The translations under genes and the position numbers were made by a program. 64,000 nucleotides of DNA from positions 1 through 64,000 of IMG/VR virus record IMGVR_UViG_3300035685_000002; one strand, given 5' to 3'. Below the pieces are notes generated by a model. That model was not told where the DNA came from, ran no database searches, and saw only the letters and a list, made by a program, of their open reading frames with translations. Positions 16,775 through 47,737 of this stretch are shown here, one piece after another. Every line of letters starts with the position of its first letter. Position 1 is the first letter of the stretch. This stretch comes from a virus. Its lineage: Duplodnaviria > Caudoviricetes.

Positions 16775-17119
16775 CTATGCAAATCCCGCTGGAATCTCTC
16801 CTGAATCGATCATCCTTTGTAGAGATTCCTTGCCTTTTTGGCTGCCAAGAGATGAAGAGGCGATCGCACTCGCTACCCGAACCGCCACATCCTCACTCGC
16901 CAGATAATCTTCAATATCTGGCAGTAGTTCTTTCATCCCTAGCTCTTTGCACACCCATAAGCTTCTTAGTAGATATCGCCCCTCTTTAAGATTCATCTCT
17001 ATCACTGTTCTGCCGATATCACCGGCCTTGTTCACTTCCTTGAGCAGGTCGCTGTCGGCGTCAGAATCCTGCACACCTTCCAAACAGTCGAAGTAGTCGA
17101 GTAGTTCTTGTTCGGTCAT
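16775..17119 (-). CDS. putative immunity protein (HEAT-repeat-like) for the EndoU effector
   Basis: Acidic, 114 aa, HEAT-like L..ED..VR..SA.A...LG; its start overlaps the stop of the EndoU gene. Confidence 0.6.
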   Translation of the reverse strand: MTEQELLDYFDCLEGVQDSDADSDLLKEVNKAGDIGRTVIEMNLKEGRYLLRSLWVCKELGMKELLPDIEDYLASEDVAVRVASAIASSSLGSQKGKESLQRMIDSGEIPAGFA

Positions 17120-17769
17120 TAGAATTTCGGAAATGCTGTAACGATTCTACTGTGGCGGAATGCTACGCGAATCAATACGCCCTTGACTATCCCTTCCGCA
17201 ACTTCCCGGTTTCCTACAAGTTTCTTGATACTGGTTTCGGCTACCTCTGTGATCGCCTTGAGTACATCATCATCTGACCAATGACTAGGGAATAGCGTCT
17301 TCTTCGGTTCCGGAACACTTCCATTAGGTAATGGCTTCATTGCGGACAGGGGGAGCTGAATTTCCTTAACCCCGTTGCGAGCATTCGTCCTTAGTACTTT
17401 GTATTCGTGCCCATGAGTCTCGCAGAATTCTTCCAGTCCTTTTTGGGTGTGTAGTCCCCCACCTAACTTTCCGTCTGCCACATCCCCTTTAAGAACATGG
17501 TGTTCGTTGATATTTGAGCTGCCTTCTTTGCGCTTGACAGGGGCAGCTGGTTTTGGCTTCGACGGAGATTCGACTTTTGACTCAACGGGTCTCGGTGGTG
17601 GCTGGATGAGTTTTGGTCGCTCCAATGTTTGAGTACCCTTGGAGAACCTGCCGTCACTACTCCGATTTGCCCACTCATTTTCCTTGTCCCACTCGAATGC
17701 CGCCTGAATTAGTTTGGAGCGAAATAATAAAATACTCGAAAACGCGATCGCCCTTCCTAGATCCGTCAT
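17119..17769 (-). CDS. leader-bearing effector with a bacterial EndoU ribonuclease toxin domain
   Basis: N-terminal AAFEWDKENEWANRSSDGRF, Pro-rich linker, then HVLKG..GGGLH, KTLFPSHWSDDDV and IVTAFP. Confidence 0.82.
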   Translation of the reverse strand: MTDLGRAIAFSSILLFRSKLIQAAFEWDKENEWANRSSDGRFSKGTQTLERPKLIQPPPRPVESKVESPSKPKPAAPVKRKEGSSNINEHHVLKGDVADGKLGGGLHTQKGLEEFCETHGHEYKVLRTNARNGVKEIQLPLSAMKPLPNGSVPEPKKTLFPSHWSDDDVLKAITEVAETSIKKLVGNREVAEGIVKGVLIRVAFRHSRIVTAFPKF

Positions 17770-17787
17770 AATAAACCTTTATTAACA

Positions 17788-18663
17788 ATGCTCGATAAAC
17801 CTACCAATAATTTCATTGAAGCAGTCGGCACGATCGCTCTCCTCCAGTTTCAAATCCTAGCTGCTCAAATTAAGTACGTCCGGGATGAAATGGGCAGGTT
17901 CGCTAAGACGGCTGGAGATGCTATTCCCTCTGACTTATATGAGTTTCCTTCAGATGACAAGTTCGAGAAGGCAGAGGTGTTTGATATCAGTAAGCATAGT
18001 AGTCGGGGGCGATCGCAAATTGGTGGCGTGGAAATTGATGGTAAGCGCTTCTTTGTCAAGGAAGTTCTTCACGACCAGCTCGATGAAGGGGCTGCCGAGA
18101 CAGTAGCGTCAGATGTCGCCAAGACAATGGGACTGGAGAATGATATAGTCCCTGCCAAGAAGGTGTCGATCAAGGGTCAGGAGTTTATTGCTAGTCACTA
18201 CCTACCTGGACAATCAGTGCTGAGTGCTGGGACTAACTTAAAGAGTGCTATCAGTCAGCCCAAGGCTCGGATGATGTTACTCTTTGACTTCGTTATCAAT
18301 AATACTGACCGTCATGCAGATAATGTTTATATCCCAGATGGAGGCACACCTAAACTAATAGATCACGGTAATAGCATGATGTATGAGATGGGGAGCATGG
18401 GTGATGGCGATGCCGATCTCGTGTTCAAGCACAATCAAATTTATGACAAGCATCTTAAACTAGCTCCAAACTCTGAATTTACGGATGAGGAGATTGATGC
18501 TGCTATTAAGGGTATAGATAAATTACAGGAATCTGCCAAATCTCATTTCAAGAATTCTCAACAATTAGAAAATATCTTGATCGGCTCAGAAGCTATAAGA
18601 ACCCATCTTAAAGATATGCTAGGTAAAAAGGAATTAATGAAAGTGGTAAATATAATTTTATGA
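17788..18663 (+). CDS. leader-bearing effector with a HipA/PI3K-PI4K-like kinase domain
   Basis: N-terminal LAAQIKYVRDEMGRF; kinase motifs FFVK, AETVAS, DFVINNTDRHADN and LIDHG. Confidence 0.8.
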   Translation: MLDKPTNNFIEAVGTIALLQFQILAAQIKYVRDEMGRFAKTAGDAIPSDLYEFPSDDKFEKAEVFDISKHSSRGRSQIGGVEIDGKRFFVKEVLHDQLDEGAAETVASDVAKTMGLENDIVPAKKVSIKGQEFIASHYLPGQSVLSAGTNLKSAISQPKARMMLLFDFVINNTDRHADNVYIPDGGTPKLIDHGNSMMYEMGSMGDGDADLVFKHNQIYDKHLKLAPNSEFTDEEIDAAIKGIDKLQESAKSHFKNSQQLENILIGSEAIRTHLKDMLGKKELMKVVNIIL

Positions 18664-18881
18664 AAAATGTTCTTGAGGTTTATGAGGGAGACAATCTCCT
18701 CTCTACGGTTAGCCTTGTTGATGGCGAGTTAAAAGTAATTGCTGCACCAGGTAGAAGTCAAAAGGATCAGGAAGAATTTATACAGACTTTGCGGCGTAGA
18801 AATATGACCGATGAAGACCTATTCAAGTGGTTGCCTAAAAGATTGCGCTCTCGTGTCTATGCAGTAGAGCCGGAAGAGTAA
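18660..18881 (+). CDS. small protein, putative immunity partner of the kinase
   Basis: ATGA overlap with the kinase stop; followed directly by the 16-bp palindrome. Confidence 0.55.
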   Translation: MKNVLEVYEGDNLLSTVSLVDGELKVIAAPGRSQKDQEEFIQTLRRRNMTDEDLFKWLPKRLRSRVYAVEPEE

Positions 18882-18907
18882 ATCCCTAATAAACCTTTAT
18901 TAAAGTA

Positions 18908-20530
18908 ATGCCAGATAATCCTATAGTTCCAGCGGCTAATGCACCGACCGGGACTAAACCTACAACTAGTACAGCAACCGGAACCAAGCCTGCAACGAGT
19001 ACGACATCAGGAGAGACGCTTTCGACGACAGGTAGTCGGGCTGTAGCGCTCCTAGATCCAACTAAAAACCCAGGTTTCACGTCTAAGACTCCTAGTAAGC
19101 TAGCGAAATCAACACTGAAGGGACAGCATGTTGATTTAAAAGCATATCTAGAGGTTCTTAAAACTGTAGAAATTACGTTTATCAATGGTGATCTAAAAGA
19201 ACGGACACTGAAGATTGGTCAGTACCTCGGTGTAGGAATCGAAGACATATCCCATAATTCTGGTGCTAGCTGGTCGGCTGCCGGGGAGAGTGGTGTACGG
19301 AATAATCTCAATTTCAGCAAACTATCTGAACGAACATTTTCTTTAAATCTTCAGTTTTACGACATAGCGGAGGACATATCTCAGTTGGTTGAGAACTTGG
19401 AACACCTGACTCGCATCCCTAGTGGTTCCAAGAGTCCGCCATTACTTATCTACAAGCAGGGTAAGCTTGTCATGAAACCAGTTGTCTGTACTGGAATCAA
19501 ATCCAATTACAAGAACCCGCGATTCACTGATAAAGGGTTTATGTATGCCGAGATGACGCTTGACTTCATGCTAGTTGGGGGTGCAGCTAGTGAACACGCT
19601 TTAGGTGGACCGCTTGCACCTAATCCGTTGAGTGACTGGCTGTCTGAACAGAGCAAAGCCGAGCGTGAAAAGCAGCAAGGAATAGATAGCGCCAAGAGAT
19701 TGCTCTATGACTGTCTGGGAACCGCAGGCAATGCTCAGTTGGAGTCTTCCCTCAAGGACGGTAAATATAAGACGGTTAATGGCGTTCTAGGAATGGACTC
19801 TGGTCTTGTGTTGCAGTTGGCGATCGCTGGAATGATTCCTGCTGATGTCCTTGGCGATCGCTCTATTCAGCAAAAAATATCAAAACAAATCGCTGTCTCT
19901 CTTGCAGCTAAAGAACCAGGGGTTGGTGGTAATCCAAAATATGAAACCCAGCTACGTAATTATTTACTTGGAAGCACGTCACTTAATTCCCTCGATAAGA
20001 CCTTGACTGCCATCACTTCTAGTGGGAAGTCACTAGCGGATGAGATCAAGGCAGATTACGATGTCATGGTTGACGCAGTTATTACCCAGAAGTTGGCAGA
20101 TGACTCGGCTTTGTTTAATCGTGCAGCATTCCCTACAGCGGGTGAGAGATTCCAAGGTATTGGTAGTTGTGGGAATTTAATGCGCAAATCTGATGCTGCG
20201 AAGATCAACCCTGACGATCCAGTACAGGACGCCAATGCTCTTCAGCAGTTGACCGGATTTATAGATCAGGTCAATAAAAAAGACAAGAAAATCACAAAGA
20301 CTATGGTCTTCAACGCATTTGGTCTTAAGCTGGGTGATGAAGCTAAGGTGAAACAGATACTAGAACGTAGTCCTTATAAAGATAAACAGGATTTTATAGA
20401 CAGACTTAAGGATGTGTTTGGGGGTGATGCTGGCGCTAGGGTTGTTTGGGCTAGCTTCCAGTCCTATGCAGAAGCTAATAAGGATAAGTTGGGCAATGCC
20501 ACTGCGGATTTTGGAGGACAAGAAAAATAA
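18908..20530 (+). CDS. putative tail tube initiator/baseplate hub-like protein with a C-terminal HhH-like region
   Basis: RTFSLNLQF, PPLLIYKQG..VVCT.I...Y and AEMTLDF resemble P2 GpU/CIS tube-initiator domains. ILERSPYKD..DF..R resembles a helix-hairpin-helix. Confidence 0.5.
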   Translation: MPDNPIVPAANAPTGTKPTTSTATGTKPATSTTSGETLSTTGSRAVALLDPTKNPGFTSKTPSKLAKSTLKGQHVDLKAYLEVLKTVEITFINGDLKERTLKIGQYLGVGIEDISHNSGASWSAAGESGVRNNLNFSKLSERTFSLNLQFYDIAEDISQLVENLEHLTRIPSGSKSPPLLIYKQGKLVMKPVVCTGIKSNYKNPRFTDKGFMYAEMTLDFMLVGGAASEHALGGPLAPNPLSDWLSEQSKAEREKQQGIDSAKRLLYDCLGTAGNAQLESSLKDGKYKTVNGVLGMDSGLVLQLAIAGMIPADVLGDRSIQQKISKQIAVSLAAKEPGVGGNPKYETQLRNYLLGSTSLNSLDKTLTAITSSGKSLADEIKADYDVMVDAVITQKLADDSALFNRAAFPTAGERFQGIGSCGNLMRKSDAAKINPDDPVQDANALQQLTGFIDQVNKKDKKITKTMVFNAFGLKLGDEAKVKQILERSPYKDKQDFIDRLKDVFGGDAGARVVWASFQSYAEANKDKLGNATADFGGQEK

Positions 20531-20612
20531 TCTATAATACGTCATAATGCTTGACTTTGTGTTGTATATAAGCTATACTTATAAATGTAGAGCAATATAT
20601 AACTAAAAACAC

Positions 20613-20978
20613 ATGGACAGTTTAATCAGTGCAGCGGTTCTCCTAATCCAATCTCGTTCAACGAAAGGAGACTTGAAGACAAAGGCAGCAGCCGCGATCG
20701 CACAAAGCCAATCCCTACAATTCCAAATAATCAAGTTATGTATATGGCTCGCATTCCTCCTAATCAACTTCAAGCTGTTTACAGCATGGTTAGGACTCCA
20801 TATAAAGCTCTGGCAGCTTAGAATGGCGTGGGAAATGTTCCTGGTAAATCAGGGCCTTGATGACCTCCTGGTCTCAGTCCGAAGTTACCTAAGCGGATTC
20901 TTCGACGGAATGGGAGTAGCGATTCTGATGATGGTCGGATTCATCCTCTATCTCAGATTCAAGCAGCATAAAGAGTAA
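20613..20978 (+). CDS. membrane protein
   Basis: Two or three hydrophobic segments. Has its own TTGACT..TATACT promoter and a terminator. Confidence 0.6.
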   Translation: MDSLISAAVLLIQSRSTKGDLKTKAAAAIAQSQSLQFQIIKLCIWLAFLLINFKLFTAWLGLHIKLWQLRMAWEMFLVNQGLDDLLVSVRSYLSGFFDGMGVAILMMVGFILYLRFKQHKE

Positions 20979-21029
20979 AATTAACCCAGGCGGTAATTAT
21001 CGCCTGGGTTAATTATTGGAGTAGTAAAT

Positions 21030-21125
21030 ATGGATACAGCTTATATCTATGGTGTCTTGTCCGGAATAGTGGCAACTTGTGCTATCGCCTTCTATCTTGT
21101 CAAAAATAATAAACCTTTAATATAA
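21030..21125 (+). CDS. 31-aa single-transmembrane peptide (not in the ORF track)
   Basis: MDTAYIYGVLSGIVATCAIAFYLVKNNKPLI*; GGAG upstream, terminator downstream. Confidence 0.45.
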   Translation: MDTAYIYGVLSGIVATCAIAFYLVKNNKPLI

Positions 21126-21161
21126 ACACAAAAAGGTAGGACTTATTGCCTACCTTTTTGT

Positions 21162-21497: not shown

Positions 21498-21530
21498 GGT
21501 ACACCTCGTTTTATACTAACTTATTATAAT

Positions 21531-22853: not shown

Positions 22854-22914
22854 TATATCTTTGTATGTCTATTTGTGTTATAATAATACAGTAAACACAA
22901 ATAGACAAACAAAT

Positions 22915-23364: not shown

Positions 23365-23424
23365 AATCAGCTCAGGTAGAGTATTCTGCCTGAGCTGATT
23401 TCTTAGTTTTAATAAACCTTTATT

Positions 23425-26194: not shown

Positions 26195-26196
26195 CT

Positions 26197-41400: not shown

Positions 41401-44400
41401 TACAGCAGCCAAAATAAATGCAAAGAAACGATTTGATAATGCCGTTGCTTTTACCGGGGGGCTGTTTAGGAGAAGGTCAAAAGATGAAGACTTGGTTGCG
41501 CCAGTTAATAGCTCTAGTCAGAATAATACTCCGCAAGTACCCAAACTTGGAACTGCTGGAAATCCAATAAAAATTGATCAAAACTTCCCTATTATACCCC
41601 CGGTTAAAATAGATACTCCAGATATCGATCCGCTCAATGATACCGACATTCCCCAAAAATCAACTAGTAGGATTCAGAAATTATCAGCCGCATCAGATTC
41701 TACAAGCAATGCTGTTTCCTCGCTTGGTACAGTAGTCGGAGCATTTTCCCCTCAGTTAGCTGCTCCTCTCTATGTTGCAACATCTTTATTGTCCGCTGTA
41801 AATAATCTTGGTGATGTAGCAACAAGTTCCAAAGAAGCGCTCGCGGGATTTGCGGATGCCTTCCCCGGACTTGGTAAAAGCATGAGTGAAATGGGGCAAA
41901 GGGCCAGGGATATTTACTCAGGATTCACTTCTTGGGTTGGGGGAGCTTCTATATTTGAAAAGGCATCGGGATTGATGGCAGGAGCGAATCAGTTTCTGTC
42001 TTCTAAGTTCGAGGGAGTCACTTCGTCAGCCCAAAAGCTTTGGAGACAGGTCGTTGTGAATTATCAAGCTTTCGGAGCATACGACACTGCCTCAATGCTC
42101 ATGTCGAAGACTAGTAGCTTTTTGTCCTCTAGATTCGAGGGAGTTACTTCGTCAGCTCAAAAGCTTTGGAGACAGGTCGTTGTAAACTATCAAGCTTTCG
42201 GAGTATACGACACTGGTTCGATGCTTATGTCAAGGGCTAACAGCTTTCTGTCTTCTAGTTTTGATTCCCTAAAGGCTTTTGTAGCACAAGCCTGGACTAA
42301 AGTTGCCTCATTTTATGAAGGAACACCATTAGCCGCTACTGCATCTAAGGTTATTGGAGCGGCTAACGAATTTATTTCAACTACATTTAGCAACCTCAAG
42401 TCATTCGCAAGCATGGCTTGGCAAGAGCTGGTAGCAGGATATGAGAAGAGTGGATTAGCTGCTAGTGTTTCTAAGATTATTGGAGCAGCCAATGAATTTA
42501 TTGCCAATACGTTTGGACCAGTCAAAGAATTTGCTACCAATGCTTGGCAGGCAATTGTCAAAGCATATCAAGATAGTGGATTGGCGGCTGGGGTTTCTAA
42601 AATTATCGGTGCGGCAAATGAATTTATATCTTCTACATTCAACTCTGTTAAGCAATTCGCGATAAAGGCTTGGCAAGCAATAGTTACGACTTATCAAGAG
42701 GGCGGCGTAGCCGCAGTTGGTTCCAGGGTTATCGCTGCCGCTAATGAATTTATATCAACTAGCTTTGCCAAAGTAAAAGAATTTGCTGTTCAGGCATGGA
42801 CGAGCATCGTTGCCACATACCAGAAAGGGGGGCTTGCCGCTGTTTGGGCGAAATTGATGGGTGGTGCCAATGAATTCATATCAAGTAGCTTTGCCAAGGT
42901 CAAGGCATTTGCAGTTCAAGCCTGGGCTGGCGTAGTAGCTTCGTATGAGGGCAGCGCCCTAGCGGCAATGCTATCCAATACCATTTCTAGAGCCAACGAG
43001 TTTATTTCAACCAGTTTCGCCAAGGTGAAAGAATTTGCGCTAAAAGCCTGGGCGACGATGGTCGCTACCTACCAGGAAGGGGGGATAGCTGCGGTTGGCT
43101 CTAAAATTATTGCGGTTGCCAACGAATTCATTTCAAGTAGCTTCGCCAAGGTAAAAGCATTTGCCATTCAAGCTTGGGCAAGTATTGTTGCAACGTATCA
43201 ACAAGGTGGATTTGCTGCTATAGGTTCAAAAATTATTGCGGCTGCCAATACGCTTATATCAACCAGTTTCGCTGGGCTAAAGAACTTTGCCTCTCAGGCT
43301 TGGCAATCAATTGTGTTGGGGTATCAACAAGGGAATATTGCAGCGATCGCGTCCAGCGCTATTGCCAGAGCCAACCAGCTGTTATCTGGTTCATTTGGTT
43401 CACTAAAGGACTTTGCTGGTAATGCTTGGGGTGAAATTGTTGGAGGATACAAACAGGGGCTTATAGCTACTCAAGCTCAAATTGCGCAAAAAGCAGCAGC
43501 AGCAGCTGCTGCTGCGACACAGGCAGCTGTCGAAGTTCCTGCGAATGCTGCGATCGCTGCCAGTGAGCAAGGTGTAGCTGTTGCAGCTTCTGTTGCTGGT
43601 ACGGCACAAGTTCAATCGTCGGTTGCAGGAAGTGCGGCGGCGACTACAGGGGCTGGTGTAGTTGCGAGTGCGAATACGGTAATGTCTAGTTCATTTGCCC
43701 GGTTAGGCATGGCAGCCTCTAAAGCCTGGGCGTTTATCGTTGGACCACTGCTACCTATAATAGTGATTGTTGGCGCACTCGCCTTAGTTATTGGTAGCGT
43801 CTATTTTGCATTCAAGTCCAACTTCCTGGGTTTTGGTTCGCTACTTAAAACGTTCTGGAAGTCACTGCAACAGCTAGGGAAGAGTTTGGCTACGTTATTC
43901 TCTCCCTTGATGCCGCTGTTTAAGCTGGTTGGTGGATTGATACTCCTAGTAATAGTAGGACCAATAATGCTGGTGGTTGGAGCCTTAACTCTAGCAGTTA
44001 TGGCAATTAATGCACTGGTTCAGGGAGTGATTGCGATCGCCTCAACTGCATTTAATTTCCTCTGGGGACTAATTCCACAACCGTTGAGATGGTTGATTGA
44101 GCAAGCATCTAAGGGAATTGAATTTGCAGTAAATGCCTTGTTTGGTGGAAACAAGGGTGGAGACCAAGCAACTGAAGACCTTCCGCATTTTGCAACAGGT
44201 GGTCCTGTTTCCGCAGGAAGTCCAGGTGGTTCTGTTGCTGCGATTTTGCATGATAACGAGTTTGTAATGAACCCGGATGCGACTCGTGAGAATTATGGAC
44301 TATTGCAGCTCCTTAACAGTGGGGTGCCAGCTGAAGATGCGATTCGGATGATACCCACTACACCTCCAGCTCCTGTAGCCCTACCTATGGGAACTGGAGG

Positions 44401-44584
44401 TGGTGGTACTGTTAGCACAACTCAGCCCCCTAATATTGAGTTAAGTATTACCTTTAGTGGGGATATTGTTTTAGGTGGGTCAAGCAGTCAGGAGAGTGCT
44501 AGGGAGTTTATGGATATGATTGGTCCTGAGATTGAGCAGTTAGTAGTAGAGGCAATGCGACAGCGAGGTGAATTTTCTAGATAA
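26498..44584 (+). CDS. giant tail tape measure protein (6028 aa) with an internal J-domain
   Basis: N-terminal TP901-type TMP core, long Ala/Gly/Leu-rich amphipathic and TM regions, W-spaced repeats, C-terminal FATGG.V..LH..EFV motif. J-domain at about 37811-37996. Confidence 0.9.
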   Translation: MDQDRYGLRAIYSFQIAGDAMSNMASVRDRLTDIINAVRNLSETSGAAAPKMGRDFGQMGSRVARGTQGAASSLNSFAQAAKAARDKLQPLKSEFRALRAESRNIDFGDLTDSAQFQQASRDVEQYINSLKALERQIEGNTFVEREFGASLKQQQRIAQTRVDMAGEQRKAAIASQRLGVSQGLQATGQNILGNLEAPIQSAQQLQQSLGNVKKLADDLSSEGYRDLTNSALNFSAAIGVADTEVTAIFEDLAGAGKGFGKELQDRIGETEGILQVKSALDVSIGAATQLDITLGSIYKHSLNQYAGGVVELNQRTASSINELADNLQNVRISAEDVIPVMKVVMNVAGDAKNFPVSDIAAYGAAISALGTVEPEAAGSFFNRLGTSMAGKFKGAFIENLGYGDEATFGQAVDTDKLGVLLRILEKYKNLEGGELVKGSFLSGIGIKSAQDQKLVQGLANNLDVLIEARKVAAAGFQGEVGKDLSVQAEFNRTMQTGAFQSRRFQAAVTALKDTLGLAIQDALTPFLVDLSDIIAVVLKFTQKYPGLTKAIALGTFGFGALATAIGTAGIVLFGFQQASATAAVAMLSMRSSLLPLTGFFETGLAGMTGGTNALTASLNLLGGVGRIAISPLMALGGVFSFLTSPIMLAIASITSLYVLLESLTPGVNLLGRALSLLAAPVGFIKGLLQGLFAGIAPVIAPLGQQIQRSLVRPLSVVTDALHQAVDTFAVFSSKGQEFGTRLAQGLIDGFNRIGNAWNYTVEWLKSRVTSLLSFFRTIGQMFVSALSENSPGPTFQIRAKWDAAIEYIKEKVASLKNAIASIGQQIADSFSRLVISIQSNFDKFLVYGIRGGIRAAARVLYSEFSIMGGESVSLFGAILKLFQGEFLLFTDGIASFSLSRGFVELLAPLRSEFSLVGAVIGVQVQSILADGKIFQTVLSAMATAVSYVARNLPILASGINYVALAFRALTPLLRRLVPGLGIVLFLVDTVHLLYRALSFLDTKLGWTWLDGLVGGLKTASDGIDLATSKMRGFIVSGINGLISAISTGWTNAFSSITQNWETWTNSVVVRIAVVASAIASIPDTLKTAFTGFLSDSQATLSSFAATLRSWFANLGRNLVQFVPDTIRGVFERLNLANFILLFTSSLPLGLLAGQIKLEFIKAAAMALPGIAAALGMAAFGPLVEAIALALPVISSLLVSSGIADRVTQFFSNVFTQAIDYAVNNLGLQLPDWLKTVGAFTDALDHFFQQLGQLALSLPTPVFFTALSPFILAVISRFNESTKAFELFISKAGGVGRVIGLIGQQLKKLLVPLGYVASMVRDFLTGPPPDLGFIIRPLVAAFNYIKPLLQPIISTVATVLRPLLSSLGIALEPLLSVLSSVASQIYAVLIPAIASIQTNLVGVVTAFLASPAFAALLPFLNLVGGGAIAAGLGVARAASGGAAAVAGGVKSAIDIAAPRLVQAGDLSIRLLGNILKAVLLISRGVTGAAIAPLNILQELLDFSNIEKVTQAAGRVTPIDLLPFFEDVRLGKVQKQTGILVNSLGPLGKTLVQLRFSFVAILEVAGAVGLGLIALEGYLKATGSGFSVFGTAAVFAAQALNVAKIAIYALRLAWVSLRYITLDLSNNLIPPRLAEATPEWVKTTSAVLKVLRDAFLLTGRVVSAALYGIVFALKTVYSAIVILGVVPALEILKYGLILVRTVLEVVTGDFHSLSKGAELVKTAILGITTALYSLRDILIPIALIFGTLLFPRIGLVVTIAVELVRGFKDVRNVFNLTYQTIKFLVGGLYELRGAIGMVGFALFAVFNLSSPWLIALSAGIGWVIEWTRGFRELHQIIDAVNSVIAFLDKSIKGLLDSVFAPISFGPFQGIIDFIKNNWPVILSAFVAFNIFLTRNLFGGFQKSFGIVPRAIGLISTSFQKMLGAFSQIFPFFDRFRREVVVLKKEAVFNQAQMFQGDYIGGRPRPSIGDREMLGRQQEIVKFRSLLEQEALSEARRRHTEKRLQKTYSHRTTEGYQQRLVNPRVGPLDPRRALDSLEARTVQFSTKQIEASRTNVLKDYQRMSAIAQRAGLGGFSLPQLQALSAREGSDYYTQKGILPTLDAKYIEITAGQVVVSANRKQGQRQGIGSIDQEQLGQGAYKQFQEIAKLSKQLSPLSEEDIGIPGVIQTIASNEKLGGKASGISGTGNISQKELNSNDVPGVLGDIYSLRTARGINPLNLQQEKRVSDVLKQLSRQSGSVNLDQLKEVAEHMLIPGARGRMVPPELVEFEKAILEAKIRRQASPSTFNSYAPKGFAEIIRLLQSDRDARQLMEGQGYSEEFINQAITTLTKSRTKSRDPQMRQFNQRKLNELMATLMASEFSLGTVGKGDIGEVFYRSPLADEPRRVGAQGETGVSSDAIFSRFLSKPTYKTTVAQVRAQQESRTRNQSSVRQALNSMYADKFDFGSVVKNTAPNKTAKAAVRNFLVDLSKRTGSPLDESEIDMLKSDLNKANTAQQFQDFIKREIVNKRQGKEFGQFMERYRAAVFMREQGIVPKERMNEQTKKTETISVLETMGEHSKAVTNLQQGNFETLVRKYGFDMGNVGAIANRSGLDVDELYFGEKVPKADKMYARRLRESKMESFAKNAGYSGIDQVLEEMAQDQSGNIDPGRLNAAREKYRKVTEADWGNKKTIEAMQQFSRNMGVDNNEFMNAILSGNLLDEEKNTPKGMGRRISQFFSLRKNKLTAGLVSGIYQDADIRAAQSQINKGLEAAARDRVTGLNAIITQTGGSLPDLLKTLDVNISASDFRKELRLNPSITKLKDLLGGGEVGIKKLKQLSTALGTTTDKLLDTLQEASNLTYIERLQVGFYTALKEFGYKTTAVFSRINKNILSFSFGIQGFLGLDRLDNYYGRLRKVYNRQLEKYNQKNASNLNFMIQEAGFDTAKDFVAYLERSGIDKAAIGNLLKGKTKNIDDRSIKDIARILGLSKRSDSGENIPDTSSLLSSEFTTKAYKPFQSFFSFGLKATLSSKFIRNSLVRSVGAGVQSAISSTGSLLTRVGQVNVRESIEAIASSIERAVARFNMSIATGGGTPATAMERLAKEVRRQIAVNLNKLTLVVTSPLKKLAQAAPNSKISEIVNAAYRSIPDRLLAIALKAREQAAALSSSGAKYQKTIARAEFFEKASRGFENFQNSYPTLRTAISGMFESMGTGFRHLGGEINSKAIGVAKKIGFDELYTKFKQAVKNVPGFSDVDRAARIATIQGFLKQARKGAVAAAQSAEQRRVQFAAPRTLGQAGYNVTDAAGNRATRIQERLNRPDSKFSPTARQYLENKGYKIESLSPEQQDPQVIYGPFVKAFRTIAKAARVSEGLVEKALSNPVVYVLTRWTDLTWFFIKKLPSAIASGFRLASNAVAASTRHMVNLVREAVVQVASRIIQVFPQAAGIIIGSLDLISRASRFVGDEISQFLSNPANYVSNSWARAVNFISSLWNKLTGAASKLGTWLVNKLNHGAADVTAEAWARTQNSTAENMQHMAQNATAAGHQIEGAMVHAAQSTDETLTHATRNPLAAFGKLQHAVMAIGGLGVGLSTIGNSLQESNPALSATLTKMSGIVFAIDAVGGAVYALQQFGGNLFQFFTDESVLNFLGAVKTRILATLPAIRAFGVALKSQFLSGALFTNPIFLAIAGISAAITALYFAFKNNFLGIRDLIASVAPIFQKVAEIITGAVQSISNAISALTSNMGTMIPQILLIGAVTVSSMDSLPIKEILVSKLEATEKAISPIAARISRKIQGDTHYTTLGISPTAKPEDVKAAYRSKAKQFHPDLNQSKAASDEFIKVSEAYRTLADAERRVAYDAVASTKAMGGFTHSLKRLPELLSSGVTGGMGLLKNFIKELPGIVDTAGKRSLELVKLLMGDAVSAVASNFPKLYKVIERIAQAILKKFGQLGTGAKKLFNFFVNPTDVAAFGMHRLGDAISGLSPQVGKALHGLGDLTAWYGDFMGLHSMVYAGLKKFKLTQPLANLAKTIATSHPLLEKFARFSKGMADDGFEFLAKNYGDRFKNQISKLNPVLASLKSKFAEFASSVVSAFSTRWSSFVTVWPGMVDGAAKAIQPKFQGLTNFLTGVGNQMLLTGTSLTQPLLKAGTAAAVQAGILVPSNQAIAASYAGTAVAANSSSLTIVKSSGRSAIAVATEAGEIIPLNLSMAGSFGALAAGVTTATTAVWAFVSPWVIAVSTALAPFLPVILGVIGAVALFGVIWRTNLFGLGSAIKPLLDFSIGLLKIVGAAIYVVSGLFLVITAVKLAGMVLRNVFGLIGSTIHQTQKTVAGSWFGDFLSKLAAPFKFAWNALNTLADGILGIGRGGQIVNEILEDIAKHPVRFLQTSFMAINWLVKSLIKPLLLLTTGAWGLAKAFGGGVVGAISSISGLLGGVINALEALWTSVASFLQSAFQNTLNYFGQIDWVAVSTGATDALTGIGMAILQPFVWVYNQIDAIAKKSTEVFDALGAKLSKIPVVGLAFQKGLTPPPTTEAAQSPLVAEAAIPSLIQQTPTGAAISSPVVDAQSPLAAASGQVQQAWTGFGSWFGSFMQNLPEDAQIAGQGLISALNCWPTVVIPQSWERAAGEIGGSLTGLTQEAVTRGEEIAQGMQQAIEPSLLGVFQKVKLLRQGFDMKGVQMILGEESLGDQLSKLQGATIDFRRSFVNALLHLDFSAAGESLATYGRAWLSTGSGILGTVKSMTSSMIAFGIYSLLGLNPLLLVMGGIALAGLAIAFNFLGIRTILGGLIGVIKGLLGVFVSTIKFAVNLGRAIGTIWQGIQLMDFDMIKVGAVNAFSAITGYVKDLWQSLSQGLGGVLQVLRGLFEGLGQVGGGVLSLFGMKGTWVSDVFGRIFSFVGNLASAFISMVTRPQQAWTRFKELLDSILEKVQQVLGKAKDVATNAMEGVKSSPLGQSVRIVKKVVTGESSSIGDAVDQVRFEERLKGKEPGLNLGEQVTAAKINAKKRFDNAVAFTGGLFRRRSKDEDLVAPVNSSSQNNTPQVPKLGTAGNPIKIDQNFPIIPPVKIDTPDIDPLNDTDIPQKSTSRIQKLSAASDSTSNAVSSLGTVVGAFSPQLAAPLYVATSLLSAVNNLGDVATSSKEALAGFADAFPGLGKSMSEMGQRARDIYSGFTSWVGGASIFEKASGLMAGANQFLSSKFEGVTSSAQKLWRQVVVNYQAFGAYDTASMLMSKTSSFLSSRFEGVTSSAQKLWRQVVVNYQAFGVYDTGSMLMSRANSFLSSSFDSLKAFVAQAWTKVASFYEGTPLAATASKVIGAANEFISTTFSNLKSFASMAWQELVAGYEKSGLAASVSKIIGAANEFIANTFGPVKEFATNAWQAIVKAYQDSGLAAGVSKIIGAANEFISSTFNSVKQFAIKAWQAIVTTYQEGGVAAVGSRVIAAANEFISTSFAKVKEFAVQAWTSIVATYQKGGLAAVWAKLMGGANEFISSSFAKVKAFAVQAWAGVVASYEGSALAAMLSNTISRANEFISTSFAKVKEFALKAWATMVATYQEGGIAAVGSKIIAVANEFISSSFAKVKAFAIQAWASIVATYQQGGFAAIGSKIIAAANTLISTSFAGLKNFASQAWQSIVLGYQQGNIAAIASSAIARANQLLSGSFGSLKDFAGNAWGEIVGGYKQGLIATQAQIAQKAAAAAAAATQAAVEVPANAAIAASEQGVAVAASVAGTAQVQSSVAGSAAATTGAGVVASANTVMSSSFARLGMAASKAWAFIVGPLLPIIVIVGALALVIGSVYFAFKSNFLGFGSLLKTFWKSLQQLGKSLATLFSPLMPLFKLVGGLILLVIVGPIMLVVGALTLAVMAINALVQGVIAIASTAFNFLWGLIPQPLRWLIEQASKGIEFAVNALFGGNKGGDQATEDLPHFATGGPVSAGSPGGSVAAILHDNEFVMNPDATRENYGLLQLLNSGVPAEDAIRMIPTTPPAPVALPMGTGGGGTVSTTQPPNIELSITFSGDIVLGGSSSQESAREFMDMIGPEIEQLVVEAMRQRGEFSR
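41984..43460 (+). repeat. about 12 tandem 126-bp (42-aa) repeats within the tape measure gene
   Basis: Unit ANEFIS.SFAKVK.FA.QAW..IV..YQ.GG.AA..SKII.A. The first two units are near-identical in DNA (42008 vs 42134). Confidence 0.9.
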
Positions 44585-44596
44585 TAAAGGTTTATT

Positions 44597-45883
44597 ATGG
44601 TGAGTTTTGGAACAGAGAAGACTCTCCTAGCACTTGCTCAGGTAGAGTTATTGCAAGCTGCATTTGAATGGGATAAACAAAATTCCTGGGTGAAGAGGAC
44701 AAGGGATGGTCGATTTGGATCAGGCTCTTCTCAATCTATCTTGGCTCCCAAAGATCGGGTTACCGATAATCCTGGTGTTAGAGAATCTCTATCTAAAGTT
44801 GGAATAAGTCCTGATGAAGTCGCGATCGCCCTTGAACGGCTAGAATCTCGCCCCAAGGATTTTAGTCCAATTTATTCCATGATCTTGCTGCCATTTCAAA
44901 GAGAATATTTAGCCTCTAGAAATTTAAAACAGCAGGATCTGGAAAGATTTGATAGAAGGATAAGAGAAGTAAATAAAATTGTCGCACAAGGAAATTGGGA
45001 GAACAGTAAGGACTTAGCGTGGAGAGTGGGAGCTATAAAGGCTGAGGTTAAATATGGAGATCTGATTAACGACCTGGTAGACATATCCCTACCAGCAGAA
45101 GGCAGGTCTGGACTTAAACCACTTTTAGATATTTTTAAGGATAATACTGCTTACAAAAAGCTACTTAAACGATTAAACAAAAAAACACAGTCTAATGCAA
45201 TACGACAAGTTAGTTCAGAAGAAGCCAAGGCTATTCAAGATTTGTTTCGCAAAGTTCAGGATGTCACTCCTATAGAACAACGTATGACTGGAATTGTGGA
45301 AATACCAGAAGATCGCCGAGATAGTTTAATCAAAACCGCAGTAAAACCAGGTAAAGCTTTTCAGGAACTCGTCTATCCAAAGTTAGATGCAATTCTTGAC
45401 GCTTTGATGGAAAGAGGATTTACAACAAGTTCTGCTGAACTGAGGAAGGAGGCAGATAAGATGGGTTTCTCCGTAGACCCGGCTCTAGAGAAAGATTTTA
45501 GATACATCAATGTAGGTAATTACAAAGGACAAGCTGTCAAGTTTGTCATGGATCATGAACTAGGACATCAGTTGGAAATACAACTCAAACAAGTTGAGAC
45601 ATCTAAGCGGTTTATTGATGCTAGAGCCACTTCCCCTTTTCTGCAAGATTTGAAAGAATATGGTATGCCTGGGGAAAAGGTAAGACCAGATAACTTTTCT
45701 CATCCTTATACAGGAAAGGTTTACGACACAGATGCAACAGAGGTCGTATCAACTGCCACCCAGGCACTCGTTAGTCCTATGGTTCTCTCAGTGCAAAGCT
45801 ACTTAGATAGGGAGCATATTATGTATGGACTATCCGTCATGGACATGAAAGAAGGTGATCGCTTTCCGGGAGGTGAAAAGTGA
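44597..45883 (+). CDS. leader-bearing effector with a C-terminal zincin metallopeptidase domain
   Basis: N-terminal LQAAFEWDKQNSWVKRTRDGRF; HELGH plus downstream YTGKVY..TEVVS. Confidence 0.75.
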   Translation: MVSFGTEKTLLALAQVELLQAAFEWDKQNSWVKRTRDGRFGSGSSQSILAPKDRVTDNPGVRESLSKVGISPDEVAIALERLESRPKDFSPIYSMILLPFQREYLASRNLKQQDLERFDRRIREVNKIVAQGNWENSKDLAWRVGAIKAEVKYGDLINDLVDISLPAEGRSGLKPLLDIFKDNTAYKKLLKRLNKKTQSNAIRQVSSEEAKAIQDLFRKVQDVTPIEQRMTGIVEIPEDRRDSLIKTAVKPGKAFQELVYPKLDAILDALMERGFTTSSAELRKEADKMGFSVDPALEKDFRYINVGNYKGQAVKFVMDHELGHQLEIQLKQVETSKRFIDARATSPFLQDLKEYGMPGEKVRPDNFSHPYTGKVYDTDATEVVSTATQALVSPMVLSVQSYLDREHIMYGLSVMDMKEGDRFPGGEK

Positions 45884-46221
45884 TAATCGCAAAAATATTT
45901 AAAGAGAATTTTGCTGTATGCAATATAGGATTAATTCCAGCAGATAGGCGGTTGACAGCTCTTTCTAGCCAGATCTGTGACACAACAATTGAAGTACTAA
46001 GTGATCGCTTGTTTGATGAGTTGCTTTGTTATTTACTATTTGTTCGCGATCGCAAAAATTTCCCTATTGTAATGATGGAGGGTAATAGCTTCGAGTTTAT
46101 TTCCACAACTTACAACGATCTGGTCTTTGTACTTAATACGTTGCCTTCCGACTATCGCTACGAAGTAAGTGGTGATGTGATGATTGTAGACGACCCACTT
46201 CCTAGATGGGCAATACACTGA
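45880..46221 (+). CDS. putative immunity partner of the peptidase effector
   Basis: GTGA overlap with the effector stop; GGAGG RBS. Confidence 0.55.
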   Translation: MIIAKIFKENFAVCNIGLIPADRRLTALSSQICDTTIEVLSDRLFDELLCYLLFVRDRKNFPIVMMEGNSFEFISTTYNDLVFVLNTLPSDYRYEVSGDVMIVDDPLPRWAIH

Positions 46222-46742
46222 TGGAATTGAAATACGAGTCAGATTGGGGCAAGCTGTTTGATAGGCTCAACAAGCTTGAGGCGAATGTAAAGTCAGTCGG
46301 CGAGAGTATCTGTCAAGATGCTGTCCAGAACATGGATGATCTGTGTCGCGATCACCTCGCAAGCCAAGGACGGGGAGGAGCTACCCCACCATTGACGGCA
46401 ATGACAAAGCATATTTACTCGATTGATGGTGAACCGGATGGTAGCGGTATCCGGAACCACATGGAGGTCAAAACCGGTTGGGCGGGTAATGAGTATACAG
46501 CTGTGCTGGGAATCCTGGACGGAAAGCCTACTATTGTTGCCAAGGTGCAAAATGACGGATGCATTATTGATATCACTCCGGCTATGCGAGGGTACTTCGC
46601 AGCTCGCTACGGGATTTTCTTTAAGGCGGACAAGAAGTACCTGGTGGTTCCAGGGCGCAGGTTTTGGGACGAATCTTGGGAAAAGACTAGGAGTGAGACA
46701 ATAAAGGAACTGTCTAGTTTTTTCCGTAACGTCCTAGGGTAA
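46221..46742 (+). CDS. phage neck/tail completion (virion morphogenesis) protein
   Basis: PPL..T, G.IRNH, AKVQNDG..I.ITPAMR and VPGRRFW pattern; TGATG coupling. Confidence 0.65.
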   Translation: MELKYESDWGKLFDRLNKLEANVKSVGESICQDAVQNMDDLCRDHLASQGRGGATPPLTAMTKHIYSIDGEPDGSGIRNHMEVKTGWAGNEYTAVLGILDGKPTIVAKVQNDGCIIDITPAMRGYFAARYGIFFKADKKYLVVPGRRFWDESWEKTRSETIKELSSFFRNVLG

Positions 46743-46754
46743 TAAAGGTTTATT

Positions 46755-47528
46755 ATGAGTAATCCGATTGATTCGGTATTCAAATCCTATCAACTGCAAA
46801 TTCTATGTGAAGGTGCTGCTTTTGAATGGGACAAGAAAAACTCTTGGGTAAATCGAGGAGAGGGAGGAAAATTTGCAAAGTCTGCCGGGAGTAGTACTGA
46901 GGATGCTGACAAGGAATCCACTTCTGGTGCTAAGGATAAGATATTTAAGTCGGTGAGCGCAAAAGTTGATCAGATAGCAGGTGCGCTCGACAAGTTGCCA
47001 GAGAGCGATCTCCAAAAAATCTCCCAAGCAATCAATAGTCCCAATATGCAGAAAGCACGGGTAGCGGCGCGGGCTAAATTCGATGCAATCGGCAAAGAGG
47101 CGGGAGAGGCATATTCAATGGCTAATGCTCAGATGGCTCCCGTTTTTCAGAAGCATGGGAGCGATTTTAAGAAAGCCGTTGCGGAAGCGAAACGGATTGC
47201 CAAGGGAATTGTAGATACCACCAAGGAGAATCCTGAGCTTGTTGTAGCTGGAGCGATGGGAGCTATTTTGGCAACTGTTGGTACGGGGGGTGCGATCGCA
47301 TTCTTCACTATCCCTAACTTATTTGGATTAGGTGGGGTTTACGGTGGAATCGCGGCAATGGTAGGACAGCAAAGTGTTAGTCAGGTAGTATCTGCTTTTG
47401 CATTAGGCGGGCTTTCTCAGATTTCGTTTGGTGTAAGCATAGATTTAATAGCAGGTGGGCTAGCTCTCATGGTGAGCGATGCCGCTATTCTTGGGGATGC
47501 GGTTTCACAGAAATTGAAGAAAAAGTGA
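46755..47528 (+). CDS. leader-bearing effector with a long hydrophobic Gly-rich C-terminus (pore-forming-like)
   Basis: N-terminal GAAFEWDKKNSWVNRGEGGKF; C-terminal hydrophobic Gly-rich helices of about 90 aa. Confidence 0.68.
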   Translation: MSNPIDSVFKSYQLQILCEGAAFEWDKKNSWVNRGEGGKFAKSAGSSTEDADKESTSGAKDKIFKSVSAKVDQIAGALDKLPESDLQKISQAINSPNMQKARVAARAKFDAIGKEAGEAYSMANAQMAPVFQKHGSDFKKAVAEAKRIAKGIVDTTKENPELVVAGAMGAILATVGTGGAIAFFTIPNLFGLGGVYGGIAAMVGQQSVSQVVSAFALGGLSQISFGVSIDLIAGGLALMVSDAAILGDAVSQKLKKK

Positions 47529-47737
47529 TGAATCGTGATCGCCACCCTTATCTCTCTAATTGGTATATGTTTCGTGCGCCCGGAACAATGTGCCTTAATT
47601 GTGGCGAGAAGCTCAAGAGTCATCCCCGTCGCTGGGTCTGGGTTTACGGCTGTAATGGGATGTTCTTAGGATACGTGCATGGATATTCTTGCTACGTGGA
47701 AGATGATAATGATGATACGGAGTATCAGAAAACCTAA
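47525..47737 (+). CDS. small Cys/His protein, putative partner of the upstream effector
   Basis: GTGA overlap; CxxC..H..C..H..C. Confidence 0.5.
   Translation: MMNRDRHPYLSNWYMFRAPGTMCLNCGEKLKSHPRRWVWVYGCNGMFLGYVHGYSCYVEDDNDDTEYQKT

Follow-up and report, generated by a model that had tools for sequence, protein, structure and literature searches.

A shared N-terminal leader on seven otherwise unrelated proteins encoded around a phage tape measure gene, probably a tag for loading swappable effectors into the virion

Introduction

The MuF polymorphic toxins of temperate phages combine a conserved N-terminus with variable toxins (ART, RNase, RelA/SpoT-like), and an immunity gene lies beside them (Jamet et al. 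2017, PMC5576092). Phage polyvalent proteins, which carry disparate effector domains, have been interpreted as proteins that are packaged and then injected (Iyer, Burroughs, Anand, de Souza, Aravind 2017, PMC5512222), and fusions of effectors to MuF, portal or capsid-processing protease modules have likewise been read as head-packaged, injected proteins (PMC5512222, PMC9503650). The internal proteins and Alt of phage T4 bear a short N-terminal leader (CTS) which directs unrelated cargo into the procapsid for injection (PMC3012670, PMC7697877), and PVC/eCIS payloads have N-terminal signals and genes that adjoin the structural operon (PMC11495950). Finally, ORF048 of Aphanizomenon phage vB_AphaS-CL131 was identified as a virion protein by LC-MS/MS of purified virions (105 unique peptides; PMC6293099 SI Table 5).

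Here we analyse a window of 64,000 nucleotides (positions 1–64,000) of a 103,060-bp phage genome that is 88% complete and comes from a biocrust metagenome. A leader of ~45 residues is common to seven otherwise unrelated proteins encoded around the gene for a 6028-aa tape measure protein, and we propose that it probably tags swappable effectors for loading into the virion. The preliminary description of this locus had assumed a cyanobacterial host; given a biocrust source and a single isolate link (one domain common to phage CL131), we would say only that this is possibly a cyanophage.

Results

Seven proteins share a two-part leader

Scanning all six frames of the window, and of the entire genome, with a regex located [RK]xxxG[RKT]F at residues ~31–46 of seven ORFs, starting at 17769 (minus strand), 17788, 21531, 23425, 24734, 44597 and 46755, in all of which the leader is N-terminal; besides these, the regex matched 2 ORFs of at least 80 aa, neither in a leader context. 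When all genome frames were searched with an HMM of 16 leaders, seven matches scored 38.7–62 bits and the runner-up frame 6.3 bits, a gap that is still clear although the HMM was partly trained on the same seven leaders. The two approaches recover exactly the seven ORFs listed in the preliminary description, confirming that the shared N-terminus is real. The leader consists of a ~20–25-residue helix with the pattern h-h-L-x-Q-x-Q-h-L and a motif of 14–18 residues, [FW]-D-[EK]-x-x-V-x-R-x-x-x-G-[RK]-F, which is followed by a Gly/Ser-rich linker. The RxxxG[RK]F form first given for the motif does not fit the leader of 21531, which has GTF. In three of the seven proteins (21531, 23425 and 24734) a single TM helix lies between leader and C-terminal domain. 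These helices were missing from the preliminary description, and they could equally mean action in the producer's own membrane.

The EndoU effector is predicted to bind its neighbour

On the minus strand, the leader at 17635–17769 (helix plus FEWDKENEWANRSSDGRF; found by regex and leader HMM) begins a 216-aa protein (17119–17769) whose C-terminus was correctly recognised as an EndoU RNase (PF14436, E 2.4e-13, 51 bits against a cut-off of 25.3 bits). Downstream, at 16775–17119 (minus strand), a 114-aa HEAT-like protein (HEAT_2, E 8e-5) is its predicted immunity partner. A 49% identical orthologue of the latter lies near the EndoU gene in the related contig L030, with an additional 79-aa ORF between the two. 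Modelling of an effector with its partner, as proposed earlier, was carried out for this pair and predicted that the EndoU domain binds the 114-aa protein: the complex reached an ipSAE of 0.82 (best control 0.00), a mark that 58 of 80 solved complexes and 2 of 110 mismatched pairs also attained, with at least 95% of contacts agreeing between runs and a partner pLDDT of at least 91. A PDB sequence search found no relative of either protein in such a complex.

The other six leaders precede diverse C-termini and, mostly, small genes

The remaining leader genes lie on the plus strand. The 291-aa product of 17788–18663 (leader 17788–17910) is a putative HipA/PI3K-like kinase; it has a DRHxxN catalytic-loop motif, but the family matches are all sub-threshold (HipA_2 E 3.7e-4, PI3_PI4_kinase 3.5e-3), PHROG 3162 being matched at 7.7e-8. 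Its candidate partner, a 73-aa ORF overlapping it by 4 nt (18660–18881), matched nothing in a family search and has a 61% identical orthologue after the kinase gene in L003. The 440-aa protein of 21531–22853 (leader 21531–21677, the GTF variant; TM helix at aa 212–232) ends in an unknown domain and is followed by a 149-aa ORF at 22915–23364, whose start is uncertain (22861 TTG or 22915 ATG). A cutinase/lipase-like alpha/beta hydrolase is suggested for the 438-aa protein of 23425–24741 (leader 23425–23562; TM helix at aa 92–110) by a GYSAG nucleophile elbow, though its matches to Thioesterase (1.2e-4) and to a cutinase-like PDB chain (1.6e-3) are again sub-threshold.

The 486-aa protein of 24734–26194 (leader 24734–24886, FDEKKVVRGPGGRF; TM helix at aa 162–183) has a JAB-like C-terminus and lies upstream of a 67-aa ORF (26197–26400), its candidate cognate partner. 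The 428-aa HExxH (HELGH) protein of 44597–45883 (leader 44597–44725) matches PHROG 20397 at 4.7e-7, and a 113-aa ORF overlapping it by 4 nt (45880–46221) has an orthologue, 63% identical, at the corresponding place in L029. For both of these C-termini the evidence is a motif (HTHPx5SxxD, with spacing one residue below canonical, and HELGH), and Pfam and PDB sequence searches gave no match; an AF2 model was poor (pLDDT 45) and the Atlas gave a weak JAB/RadC lead. The last of the seven, a 257-aa protein at 46755–47528 (leader 46755–46883) with orthologues P0013, P0016, P0018 and P0019, was described as ending in a pore-like hydrophobic tail, and hydropathy bears out a Gly-rich hydrophobic C-terminus. 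It overlaps by 4 nt a 70-aa Cys-rich ORF (47525–47737) that had no match by BLASTP (E <= 1e-3) against the called genes of L003, L004, L029 and L030; the equivalent position in L029 holds a 173-aa homologue of 46206. Altogether, domain assignments are weak or motif-only in five of the seven proteins, and six of the seven genes, rather than five as first counted, have an abutting or overlapping small ORF downstream.

Cassettes are exchanged behind a conserved leader

Comparison with related contigs showed that leaders remain 55–65% identical while cargo falls to 21–29% or is replaced. Specifically, the body of 21531 is 22–26% identical to its orthologues, against 55–65% for its leader. At the 24734 locus, leader, linker and TM helix are kept and the C-terminus is JAB-like in the window and L004, ADPrib_exo_Tox in L003 and another domain in P0030. 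The downstream small ORF switches together with the C-terminus: the 67-aa ORF has a 42% identical orthologue in L004, and an unrelated 39-aa ORF stands in its place where the effector has the ART. The proposed signature of a conserved N-terminus, a variable toxin-like C-terminus and a cognate downstream gene therefore holds against relatives at the same locus. By contrast, the 149-aa ORF behind 21531 shows 68–77% identity in L003 and L004, against 22–29% for its upstream neighbour; judged by these identities, so much better conserved a downstream gene is atypical for a co-evolving immunity pair. We regard the polymorphic effector/immunity reading as largely supported, and the preliminary interpretation as a whole, loading and cleavage included, as partly supported.

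Such swapping downstream of the leader would also be seen if the 5′ cassette were a DNA crossover site, or a shared translation-initiation or regulatory region, encoding a functionless peptide; P0034, a 92-aa remnant in which a leader runs straight into the final ~50 residues of the HExxH protein, fits this too. We nevertheless consider such a by-product of recombination highly improbable. Across four WDK-type leaders the motif cores (54 nt) share 59–72% DNA identity, and the paralogues use different codons at 5–9 of 11–14 identical residues, which makes them too diverged for homologous recombination and is typical of peptide selection; the same peptide motif moreover occurs in unrelated high-GC phages. 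Conservation of the leader acts at the level of the peptide.

The leader motif joins virion modules to effector domains in other phages

In its second half the leader is one case of a wider motif, WDESxVxRDxxG[RKQ]F, after which comes a Gly/Ser linker. The leader-HMM search suggested in the preliminary description gave only 23 matches among 1.84e9 representative proteins; those beyond the clade cover profile positions ~25–45 and occur as 2–4 copies inside long phage proteins (P0027, P0029, P0031, P0032 and P0035–37). The gene for P0031 lies directly downstream of a Portal_Mu gene and that for P0032 directly upstream of an XkdF protease gene, and the N-terminus of P0037 is a head maturation protease (PHROG 9427, 1.1e-11). 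A back-translated WDE[ST]xVxRDxxG[RKQ]F pattern identified 19 IMG/VR loci, with architectures including Phage_portal_3-GNAT-motif-NUDIX-motif-ADPrib_exo_Tox, Portal_Mu-motif, Phage_Mu_F-motif-unknown, XkdF protease-motif-RelA_SpoT, motif-ART-PolyVal-2′,5′-ligase-motif, and a motif at residue 24 followed by ADPrib_exo_Tox. A further match falls ~140 residues from the start of a tape measure protein, immediately ahead of its hydrophobic region. The motif, widespread, phage-borne and apparently undescribed, is thus found beside effector domains (ART, NUDIX, RelA/SpoT), and by sequence the leader motif reads as the stand-alone form of a junction element which elsewhere links virion-anchoring modules to such domains.

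Since this core elsewhere connects toxin-like domains with portal, MuF, head-protease and tape-measure modules, the leader is probably a loading tag; from this association and the published CL131 virion proteomics we infer virion loading of the leader proteins. For the same reason, the system is not independent of the MuF/polyvalent-protein world. The absence of a MuF domain, by which it had been defined, is correct at Pfam sensitivity (the 88%-complete genome gave no Pfam match for MuF, portal-family or prohead-protease domains), but the system is not isolated. We found no support for the earlier suggestion that a prohead protease cleaves at AA|F: none of five protease families searched was detectable in the genome, leaving a processing step with no candidate enzyme, and across the seven leaders no site resembling AA|F is conserved.

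That neither a loading partner nor a protease was identified would suit proteins that are never packaged and act in the infected cell (in takeover, superinfection exclusion or lysis timing), the leader serving to target or regulate them inside the cell, for instance as a membrane-association helix, and its likeness to the wider motif being that of a generic linker or processing site. One TM helix in three of the seven, the hydrophobic Gly-rich tail of a fourth and two conserved small membrane proteins interspersed among the leader genes (20613–20978 and 21162–21497) point the same way. We consider this unlikely, however, as the motif is repeatedly placed after portal, MuF, head-protease and TMP modules, the leader genes cluster around the tape measure gene and not among the window's replication and early genes, a homologous hydrolase domain is present in CL131 virions, and the predicted immunity-like EndoU partner fits a toxin restrained until export.

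The compartment of the proposed loading is ambiguous between head and tail lumen

The leader genes flank tail genes, as first noted: 26498–44584 (plus strand) encodes a tape measure protein by PHROGs 28, 305, 1272 and 58, with an embedded DnaJ domain (~37814–37996; E 1e-17) and orthologues of 5365 aa in L003 and 5548 aa in L004. A conserved 540-aa protein (18908–20530, plus strand; 72% identical orthologue in L030) may have a tube-like N-terminal domain, a lead from the Atlas, where its model (pLDDT 0.55) matched CIS_tube clusters in structure (TM 0.75 by row over 150 aa); the Pfam CIS_tube search was negative. Because these genes belong to a tail module and most occurrences of the wider motif are associated with head proteins, the compartment is ambiguous.

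It is possible, if rather doubtful, that the leader loads proteins into the tail tube beside the giant tape measure protein, like eCIS/PVC payload signals; this reading is still one of virion loading, with a different compartment and a different partner. All seven genes flank those for the tape measure and the candidate tube-like protein, with synteny kept in L003, L004, L029 and L030; the wider motif in a tape measure N-terminal region precedes a hydrophobic segment, the leader-linker-TM order of three of the seven; the homologous CL131 hydrolase domain sits in giant virion proteins adjoining the tape measure gene; and PVC payloads share the N-terminal signal and gene position described above. 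Against it, wider-motif contexts are mostly head proteins (portal, MuF, head protease), searches for sheath and CIS_tube families found nothing, and a tube filled by a trimeric tape measure protein has little space left.

Discussion

We think it rather likely that the seven ORFs encode effectors or penetration proteins which travel in the virion and are then ejected, with swappable cassettes and small genes that are protective or chaperones. The leader module would be taken up by an assembly component (procapsid or tape-measure/tube complex) in late assembly, its motif acting as a docking peptide or processing site. After adsorption, the leader proteins would exit with the tape measure and DNA; those with TM helices may insert into the host membrane, and the cytoplasm would be the site of action of the EndoU RNase, kinase and zincin. 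Related phages swap C-terminal cassettes together with the downstream small genes, which would give the producing cell immunity or serve as cargo chaperones.

Like MuF toxins, these putative effectors are phage-encoded, with a conserved N-terminus, variable toxin-like C-termini and an adjacent candidate immunity gene, and the leader's motif follows the MuF domain in the IMG/VR fusion L012. They differ in having no MuF domain, a leader of only ~45 residues in seven paralogous copies in one genome, genes around the tape measure gene rather than after the portal gene, and a TM helix (three) or hydrophobic tail (a fourth). With polyvalent proteins they share disparate effector domains and, in the portal and ART-PolyVal examples (L008, L011), the same junction motif between domains; here, however, there is one gene per effector with its own leader copy, akin to an 'unbundled' polyvalent protein, and the effectors usually come with a small partner gene of their own. 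The leader on unrelated cargo recalls T4 internal proteins, but the T4 CTS is ~10 residues long and removed by gp21 at LxE sites, whereas the leader genes lie in the tail module; no sequence similarity between CTS and leader was seen, and an S77 protease search of the genome found none. By description, PVC/eCIS payloads are also alike, with a ~50-residue N-terminal signal on diverse swappable toxins beside tube and tape-measure genes (PMC11495950). eCIS are, however, contractile, tailocin-like particles that lack a capsid and whose loading the Pvc15 AAA ATPase assists, and a sheath family search of the leader-phage genome found none. CL131 (ORF047–049; PMC6293099) differs in that its hydrolase domain forms part of a giant fusion protein; neither leader nor motif occurs in the 40-kb structural region examined, and the two genomes share almost nothing beyond this domain. 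What it has in common with the leader phage is the 23425 hydrolase domain, present twice in the 1811-aa ORF048 adjoining the tape measure gene.

Seven unrelated proteins share a short N-terminal leader

Using a six-frame scan, we found the motif [RK]xxxG[RKT]F 31-46 residues into seven ORFs, which have the common leader and the starts that the preliminary description had listed: 17769(-), 17788, 21531, 23425, 24734, 44597 and 46755 (ORFs are named here by start position). The same motif occurred only twice more in ORFs of 80 aa or more across the whole genome, neither time in a leader context, and a profile of 16 leaders scored the seven ORFs at 38.7-62 bits and everything else in the genome at 6.3 bits or below. 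In the alignment, the leader opens with a helix-prone stretch in which the pattern h-h-L-x-Q-x-Q-h-L recurs; its second part reads [FW]-[DE]-W-D-K-x-N-x-W-V-x-R-x-x-x-G-[RK]-F, or a shorter form of it (FDEKKVVRGPGGRF in 24734, YVRDEMGRF in 17788 and WKEGRVIRKPDGTF in 21531), and is followed by a Gly/Ser-rich stretch. Among the four closest paralogous cores DNA identity was only 59-72%, with different codons used for most identical residues; selection thus acts on the peptide rather than on an element of the DNA or RNA. When the leader proteins were scanned with Pfam and PHROG, no family covered the leader. A Sec signal peptide was ruled out by the internal R, K, E and Q residues of the N-terminal helices, the lack of a proper h-region and the lack of an AxA site.

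For the gene at 24734-26194 (+), the database gene call (P0040, 463 aa) begins 23 codons downstream of the GTG used here, with loss of the leader helix; the longer form is backed by orthologues with conserved N-termini. Leaders of this kind may be hidden by automatic annotation.

Each of the seven ORFs has one recognisable C-terminal domain. The EndoU RNase previously read from 17769(-) is a solid assignment, with a match to PF14436 (EndoU_bacteria) at residues 89-214 (51 bits against a gathering cut-off of 25.3), and the hydrophobic C-terminal tail of 46755, which is Gly-rich, likewise stood. The proposed HipA/PI3K-like kinase and alpha/beta hydrolase were recovered below threshold: for 17788 we found matches to HipA_2 and PI3_PI4_kinase (both sub-threshold), PHROG 3162 and a DRHxxN loop, and for 23425, besides a GYSAG elbow, sub-threshold matches to thioesterase and abhydrolase profiles and one match to a cutinase-like PDB chain (E = 1.6e-3). 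The JAB-like domain of 24734 and the HExxH peptidase of 44597 are seen at motif level only; relatives of both C-termini were found in the same clade only and carry no Pfam annotation, and the AF2 model of 24734 (pLDDT 45) was too poor for a fold search. A feature absent from the preliminary description is the single TM helix that lies between the leader and the C-terminal domain in 21531, 23425 and 24734; longer relatives with kinase or ADP-ribosyltransferase (ART) domains have one too. The WDK-type leader, i.e., the variant with WDKxNxW, was found on EndoU, kinase, hydrolase, ART, zincin and membrane-tail proteins.

C-terminal domains and downstream genes are exchanged together

Searched against 5.8e9 clusters, the leader profile matched 21 proteins, and against 1.84e9 representatives it matched 23, so the full leader is confined to one small clade. 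Relatives of the phage derive from the Logan assemblies SRR12282716, SRR34072512 and SRR23851206. Four contigs of this clade (L003, L004/L029 and L030) have the same arrangement around a tape measure protein (TMP) of 5365 or 5548 aa; gene order and number differ between relatives, and extra cargo includes longer HipA-like kinases with a TM segment, ARTs (PF03496) as well as several orphan domains. Where 24734 lies, relatives share homology over the first ~230 residues (leader, linker and TM), and the C-terminus is JAB-like in the window and in L004, an ART (ADPrib_exo_Tox) in L003 and another domain in the database protein P0030. The ORF that follows has 67 aa in the window and 63 aa in L004 (42% identity), and is an unrelated 39-aa ORF in L003. 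In the fast-evolving families, leaders are 55-65% identical and the remainder 21-29%. This is the polymorphic-toxin pattern suggested by the preliminary description: a conserved N-terminus joined to interchangeable C-termini among related loci. A small abutting or overlapping ORF, a candidate partner, directly follows six of the seven leader genes and switches along with the toxin domain.

In a 92-aa protein of a related contig (P0034), a complete leader runs straight into the final ~50 residues of the HExxH protein. It looks like the remnant of an internal deletion, with the junction right after the GR of the motif.

For one proposed pair of effector and partner, the EndoU domain (residues 84-216) and the downstream 114-aa HEAT-like protein, complex prediction gave an ipSAE of 0.82 against 0.00 for the best of three controls. 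On a calibration that is only rough, since it used our own small alignments, the 0.82 mark was attained by 58 of 80 solved complexes and by 2 of 110 mismatched pairs. Contact agreement across three runs was at least 95% and the partner had a pLDDT of at least 91; for neither chain did solved structures of such a complex include a detectable sequence relative, so the score is unlikely to reflect a memorised structure. Short of proof, the model favours binding of the 114-aa protein by the EndoU domain.

Among relatives, the 149-aa gene at 22915-23364 (+) is 68-77% identical, and the gene upstream of it (21531-22853 (+)) reaches only 22-29% identity beyond its leader; a toxin and an immunity protein that co-evolve should show the opposite. 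The 149-aa protein is better explained as a chaperone or structural component than as a co-evolving immunity protein.

The leader genes flank a giant tape measure gene

The virus record is that of a tailed phage (103,060 bp, linear, ~88% complete according to CheckV), of which the window is the first 64 kb. The 6028-aa TMP (26498-44584 (+); PHROGs 28 (4.5e-19), 305 (2.3e-20), 1272 and 58) sits between both groups of leader genes, the large terminase (TerL) at ~66.5 kb, ~20 kb past the last leader gene, and a tail-fibre protein at ~80 kb. A J-domain (DnaJ, E = 1e-17) is embedded in the TMP at about 37814-37996 (+), and the 5548-aa TMP of the relatives has a DnaJ match as well. If the TMP sets tail length as usual, the tail would be extraordinarily long; alternatively, the TMP may be a carrier of effector-like domains. 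For a 540-aa protein at 18908, an Atlas structural lead is the only sign of likeness to the tube proteins of contractile-injection systems, and Pfam searches for CIS_tube and sheath were both negative.

Several other genes were observed in this setting. Two small multi-TM proteins, encoded in divergent orientation, lie amid the leader genes (20613-20978 (+) and 21162-21497 (-)); they are 54-58% conserved in related contigs, the former in L003 only, and could be holin-like or handlers of TM-bearing cargo. BstA is an abortive-infection defence protein family, and a BstA_C match (PF26567) was found in L029 (9021-9833), in the homologue of the 281-aa ORF at 49754-50599 of the window; given this match, that ORF, which closely follows the effector block, might serve the phage in defence or anti-defence. 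Other genes of the window code for a C5 cytosine methylase, an MT-A70 methylase, RNase HII, ThyX, a PNK-phosphatase-like HAD protein and a DnaE-type polymerase III alpha subunit (coordinates listed for this set: 2122-3741, 4343-4930, 9264-9986, 10856-11461 and 52204-55770, the last being the DnaE-type polymerase on the minus strand), and no tRNAs were found within it.

The sequence is present in one public run only, a biocrust metagenome that is probably the source sample, and no RNA runs are listed among the sequencing runs containing it. Given this biocrust source, a cyanobacterial host is plausible. The phage has no close isolate; one domain that it shares with Aphanizomenon phage vB_AphaS-CL131 is the only link, and neither megablast of 44-50 kb nor tblastn of TerL gave a match among 50,697 phage records. 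In GTDB species-representative prokaryote genomes, a scan with the 46755 family turned up no relatives, a hint of a lytic lifestyle.

A related motif marks junctions in other phage proteins

Beyond the clade, the leader profile aligned through its second half only, 2-4 times within long phage proteins in head modules (cross-matches at E = 2.4e-8 to 5e-4 in 1.84e9 proteins). This wider junction motif, WDESxVxRDxxG[RKQ]F, was defined by 14 residues with W/F, V, R, G, [RKQ] and F in register, a Gly/Ser/Ala-rich linker next and a position N-terminal to an effector domain. The leader has these features: the motif of 24734, FDEKKVVRGPGGRF, aligns to it free of gaps, 17788 keeps VRDEMGRFA, and WDK-type leaders have a 2-residue insertion relative to it. 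Back-translated WDE[ST]xVxRDxxG[RKQ]F was found at 19 IMG/VR loci; at ~41 bits by our estimate, chance would be expected to give well under one match. Back-translated exact WDKxNxW...G[RK]F gave 0 matches in IMG/VR, in a search that may have left out the record from which the window comes.

Among the head contexts, one motif protein is encoded right after a Portal_Mu gene, with a DarA_C protein nearby, one right before an XkdF-type protease gene, and in another a head maturation protease domain forms the start. Of five complete motif-bearing genomes, three have XkdF-type proteases. The ORFs that carry the back-translated pattern have architectures that comprise Phage_portal_3-GNAT-motif-NUDIX-motif-ADPrib_exo_Tox, Portal_Mu-motif-extension, Phage_Mu_F-motif-460 aa, XkdF protease-motif-RelA_SpoT, motif-ART-PolyVal-2',5' RNA ligase-motif and, closest in layout to the leader proteins, a protein of 543 aa that has the motif at residue 24 and ends in an ART. 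A Gly/Ser/Ala-rich linker nearly always comes next. In the literature, MuF, portal and protease fusions are regarded as packaged, injected effectors (PMC5512222, PMC9503650), and the head-module and fusion contexts suggest that the motif marks junctions in proteins that enter the particle and leave it at infection.

The sole tail-protein instance of the wider motif that we saw is in a complete phage (G011, 173 kb, terminal repeats; contigs L031, 1650-2549 (-), and L032), whose TMP has WDESKVTRDSGGRF ~140 residues from its N-terminus, directly ahead of a long Ala/Gly-rich hydrophobic region. In four proteins of high-GC phages (P0027, P0029, P0032 and P0035), a long Arg/Lys/Ala-rich basic tract follows each motif copy, and the unit of globular domain, motif and basic tail is repeated 2-4 times; this composition suggests that they may be internal DNA-binding head proteins.

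The motif is absent from the phage Mu portal, F, G and I proteins. Against the phage records, tblastn of the motif proteins P0031 and P0032 gave no match, and contig L018 only a marginal one to a Paenibacillus phage. A literature string search for motif variants returned nothing relevant, a text search being unable to prove absence, and the retrieved passages of the MuF and polyvalent-protein papers do not mention the junction motif.

A candidate loading signal for virion cargo

We consider it reasonably probable that the leader is a stand-alone module that would load exchangeable effector or penetration proteins into the virion for ejection together with the TMP and DNA, and that within the producing cell the products of the small downstream genes would have a protective or chaperone role towards this cargo. 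The motif itself would act as a docking peptide or as a maturation cleavage site. The preliminary description had suggested possible cleavage at AA|F by the prohead protease. We found no support for this: no S78, S78_2, S77, ClpP or DUF2213 protease was detectable, and the seven leaders have no conserved AA|F-like site. If the leader is cleaved, a better candidate site would be the invariant G-[RK]-F with the small residue after it.

The cargo would be housed in either the capsid or the tail lumen. In favour of the capsid are the head-protein settings in which the wider motif occurs; in favour of the tail are the location of the leader genes in the tail module, the TMP instance, the order of leader, linker and TM, and the fusion in phage CL131.

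More speculatively, and with clearly less confidence, the 14-residue WDESxVxRDxxGRF, alone or with a short preceding helix, might be a portable virion-loading or ejection tag in many unrelated tailed phages, a counterpart of encapsulin cargo-loading peptides or eCIS payload signals. The clade described here would then have its minimal form, in which a ~45-residue leader suffices for arbitrary proteins, membrane proteins included, to be loaded into the particle and delivered to the next host.

How proteins are chosen for packaging and injection by phages is understood in few models (such as the T4 CTS and the P22 and T7 ejection proteins), and by inference for MuF/portal fusions. A leader common to seven cargoes, with a kindred motif at portal, MuF, protease and TMP fusion junctions in many uncultured phages, would provide a concrete, testable loading signal, a sequence handle with which to find injected effectors among viral dark matter, and perhaps a tag to load engineered cargo into phage particles. 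The leader genes also show cassette exchange in the style of polymorphic toxins, with putative cognate partner genes, inside a phage without relatives in the scanned GTDB representatives.

Comparison with known systems

The leader system is real and non-trivial, and it lies within a known kind, that of phage-delivered polymorphic or polyvalent effectors; what is new is the short, widespread junction motif that it exposes, with which cargo loading in tailed phages becomes directly testable. MuF toxins have an N-terminal Phage_Mu_F domain (PF04233), whereas this domain is absent from all seven leader proteins and from the whole genome at E<=1, as had been stated earlier. MuF toxin genes also lie in the head module beside the portal gene, whereas the leader genes flank the TMP gene; no portal gene was identified in the phage genome. 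Polyvalent proteins combine two to fifteen disparate domains per polypeptide, unlike the leader ORFs. The T4-type CTS is short like the leader, but it is removed by a gp21-type (S77) prohead protease, and no Peptidase_S77 was found in the leader phage genome. Loading of eCIS/PVC payloads into the tube lumen needs an N-terminal signal and a Pvc15-type AAA ATPase; of such features, the leader system was seen to have gene adjacency to a TMP and a possibly tube-like protein, and no sheath was found.

In Aphanizomenon phage CL131, by contrast, the hydrolase domain is fused into a giant protein without a leader, and no motif was found in the 40-kb structural region (22.8-63.6 kb). The 1811-aa ORF048, encoded directly upstream of the TMP gene, has two hydrolase-domain copies of the 23425 type (31% and 26% identity; E = 2e-25 and 4.5e-12). 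At 19866-25301 of this genome (L027), the two cutinase-like copies of ORF048 stand in tandem and ORF047 has a fragment; all three adjoin the TMP gene and all were detected in virions. In purified virions, 105 unique peptides covered 54.6% of ORF048 (PMC6293099, SI Table 5), so at least the hydrolase cargo type is a virion component in another phage.
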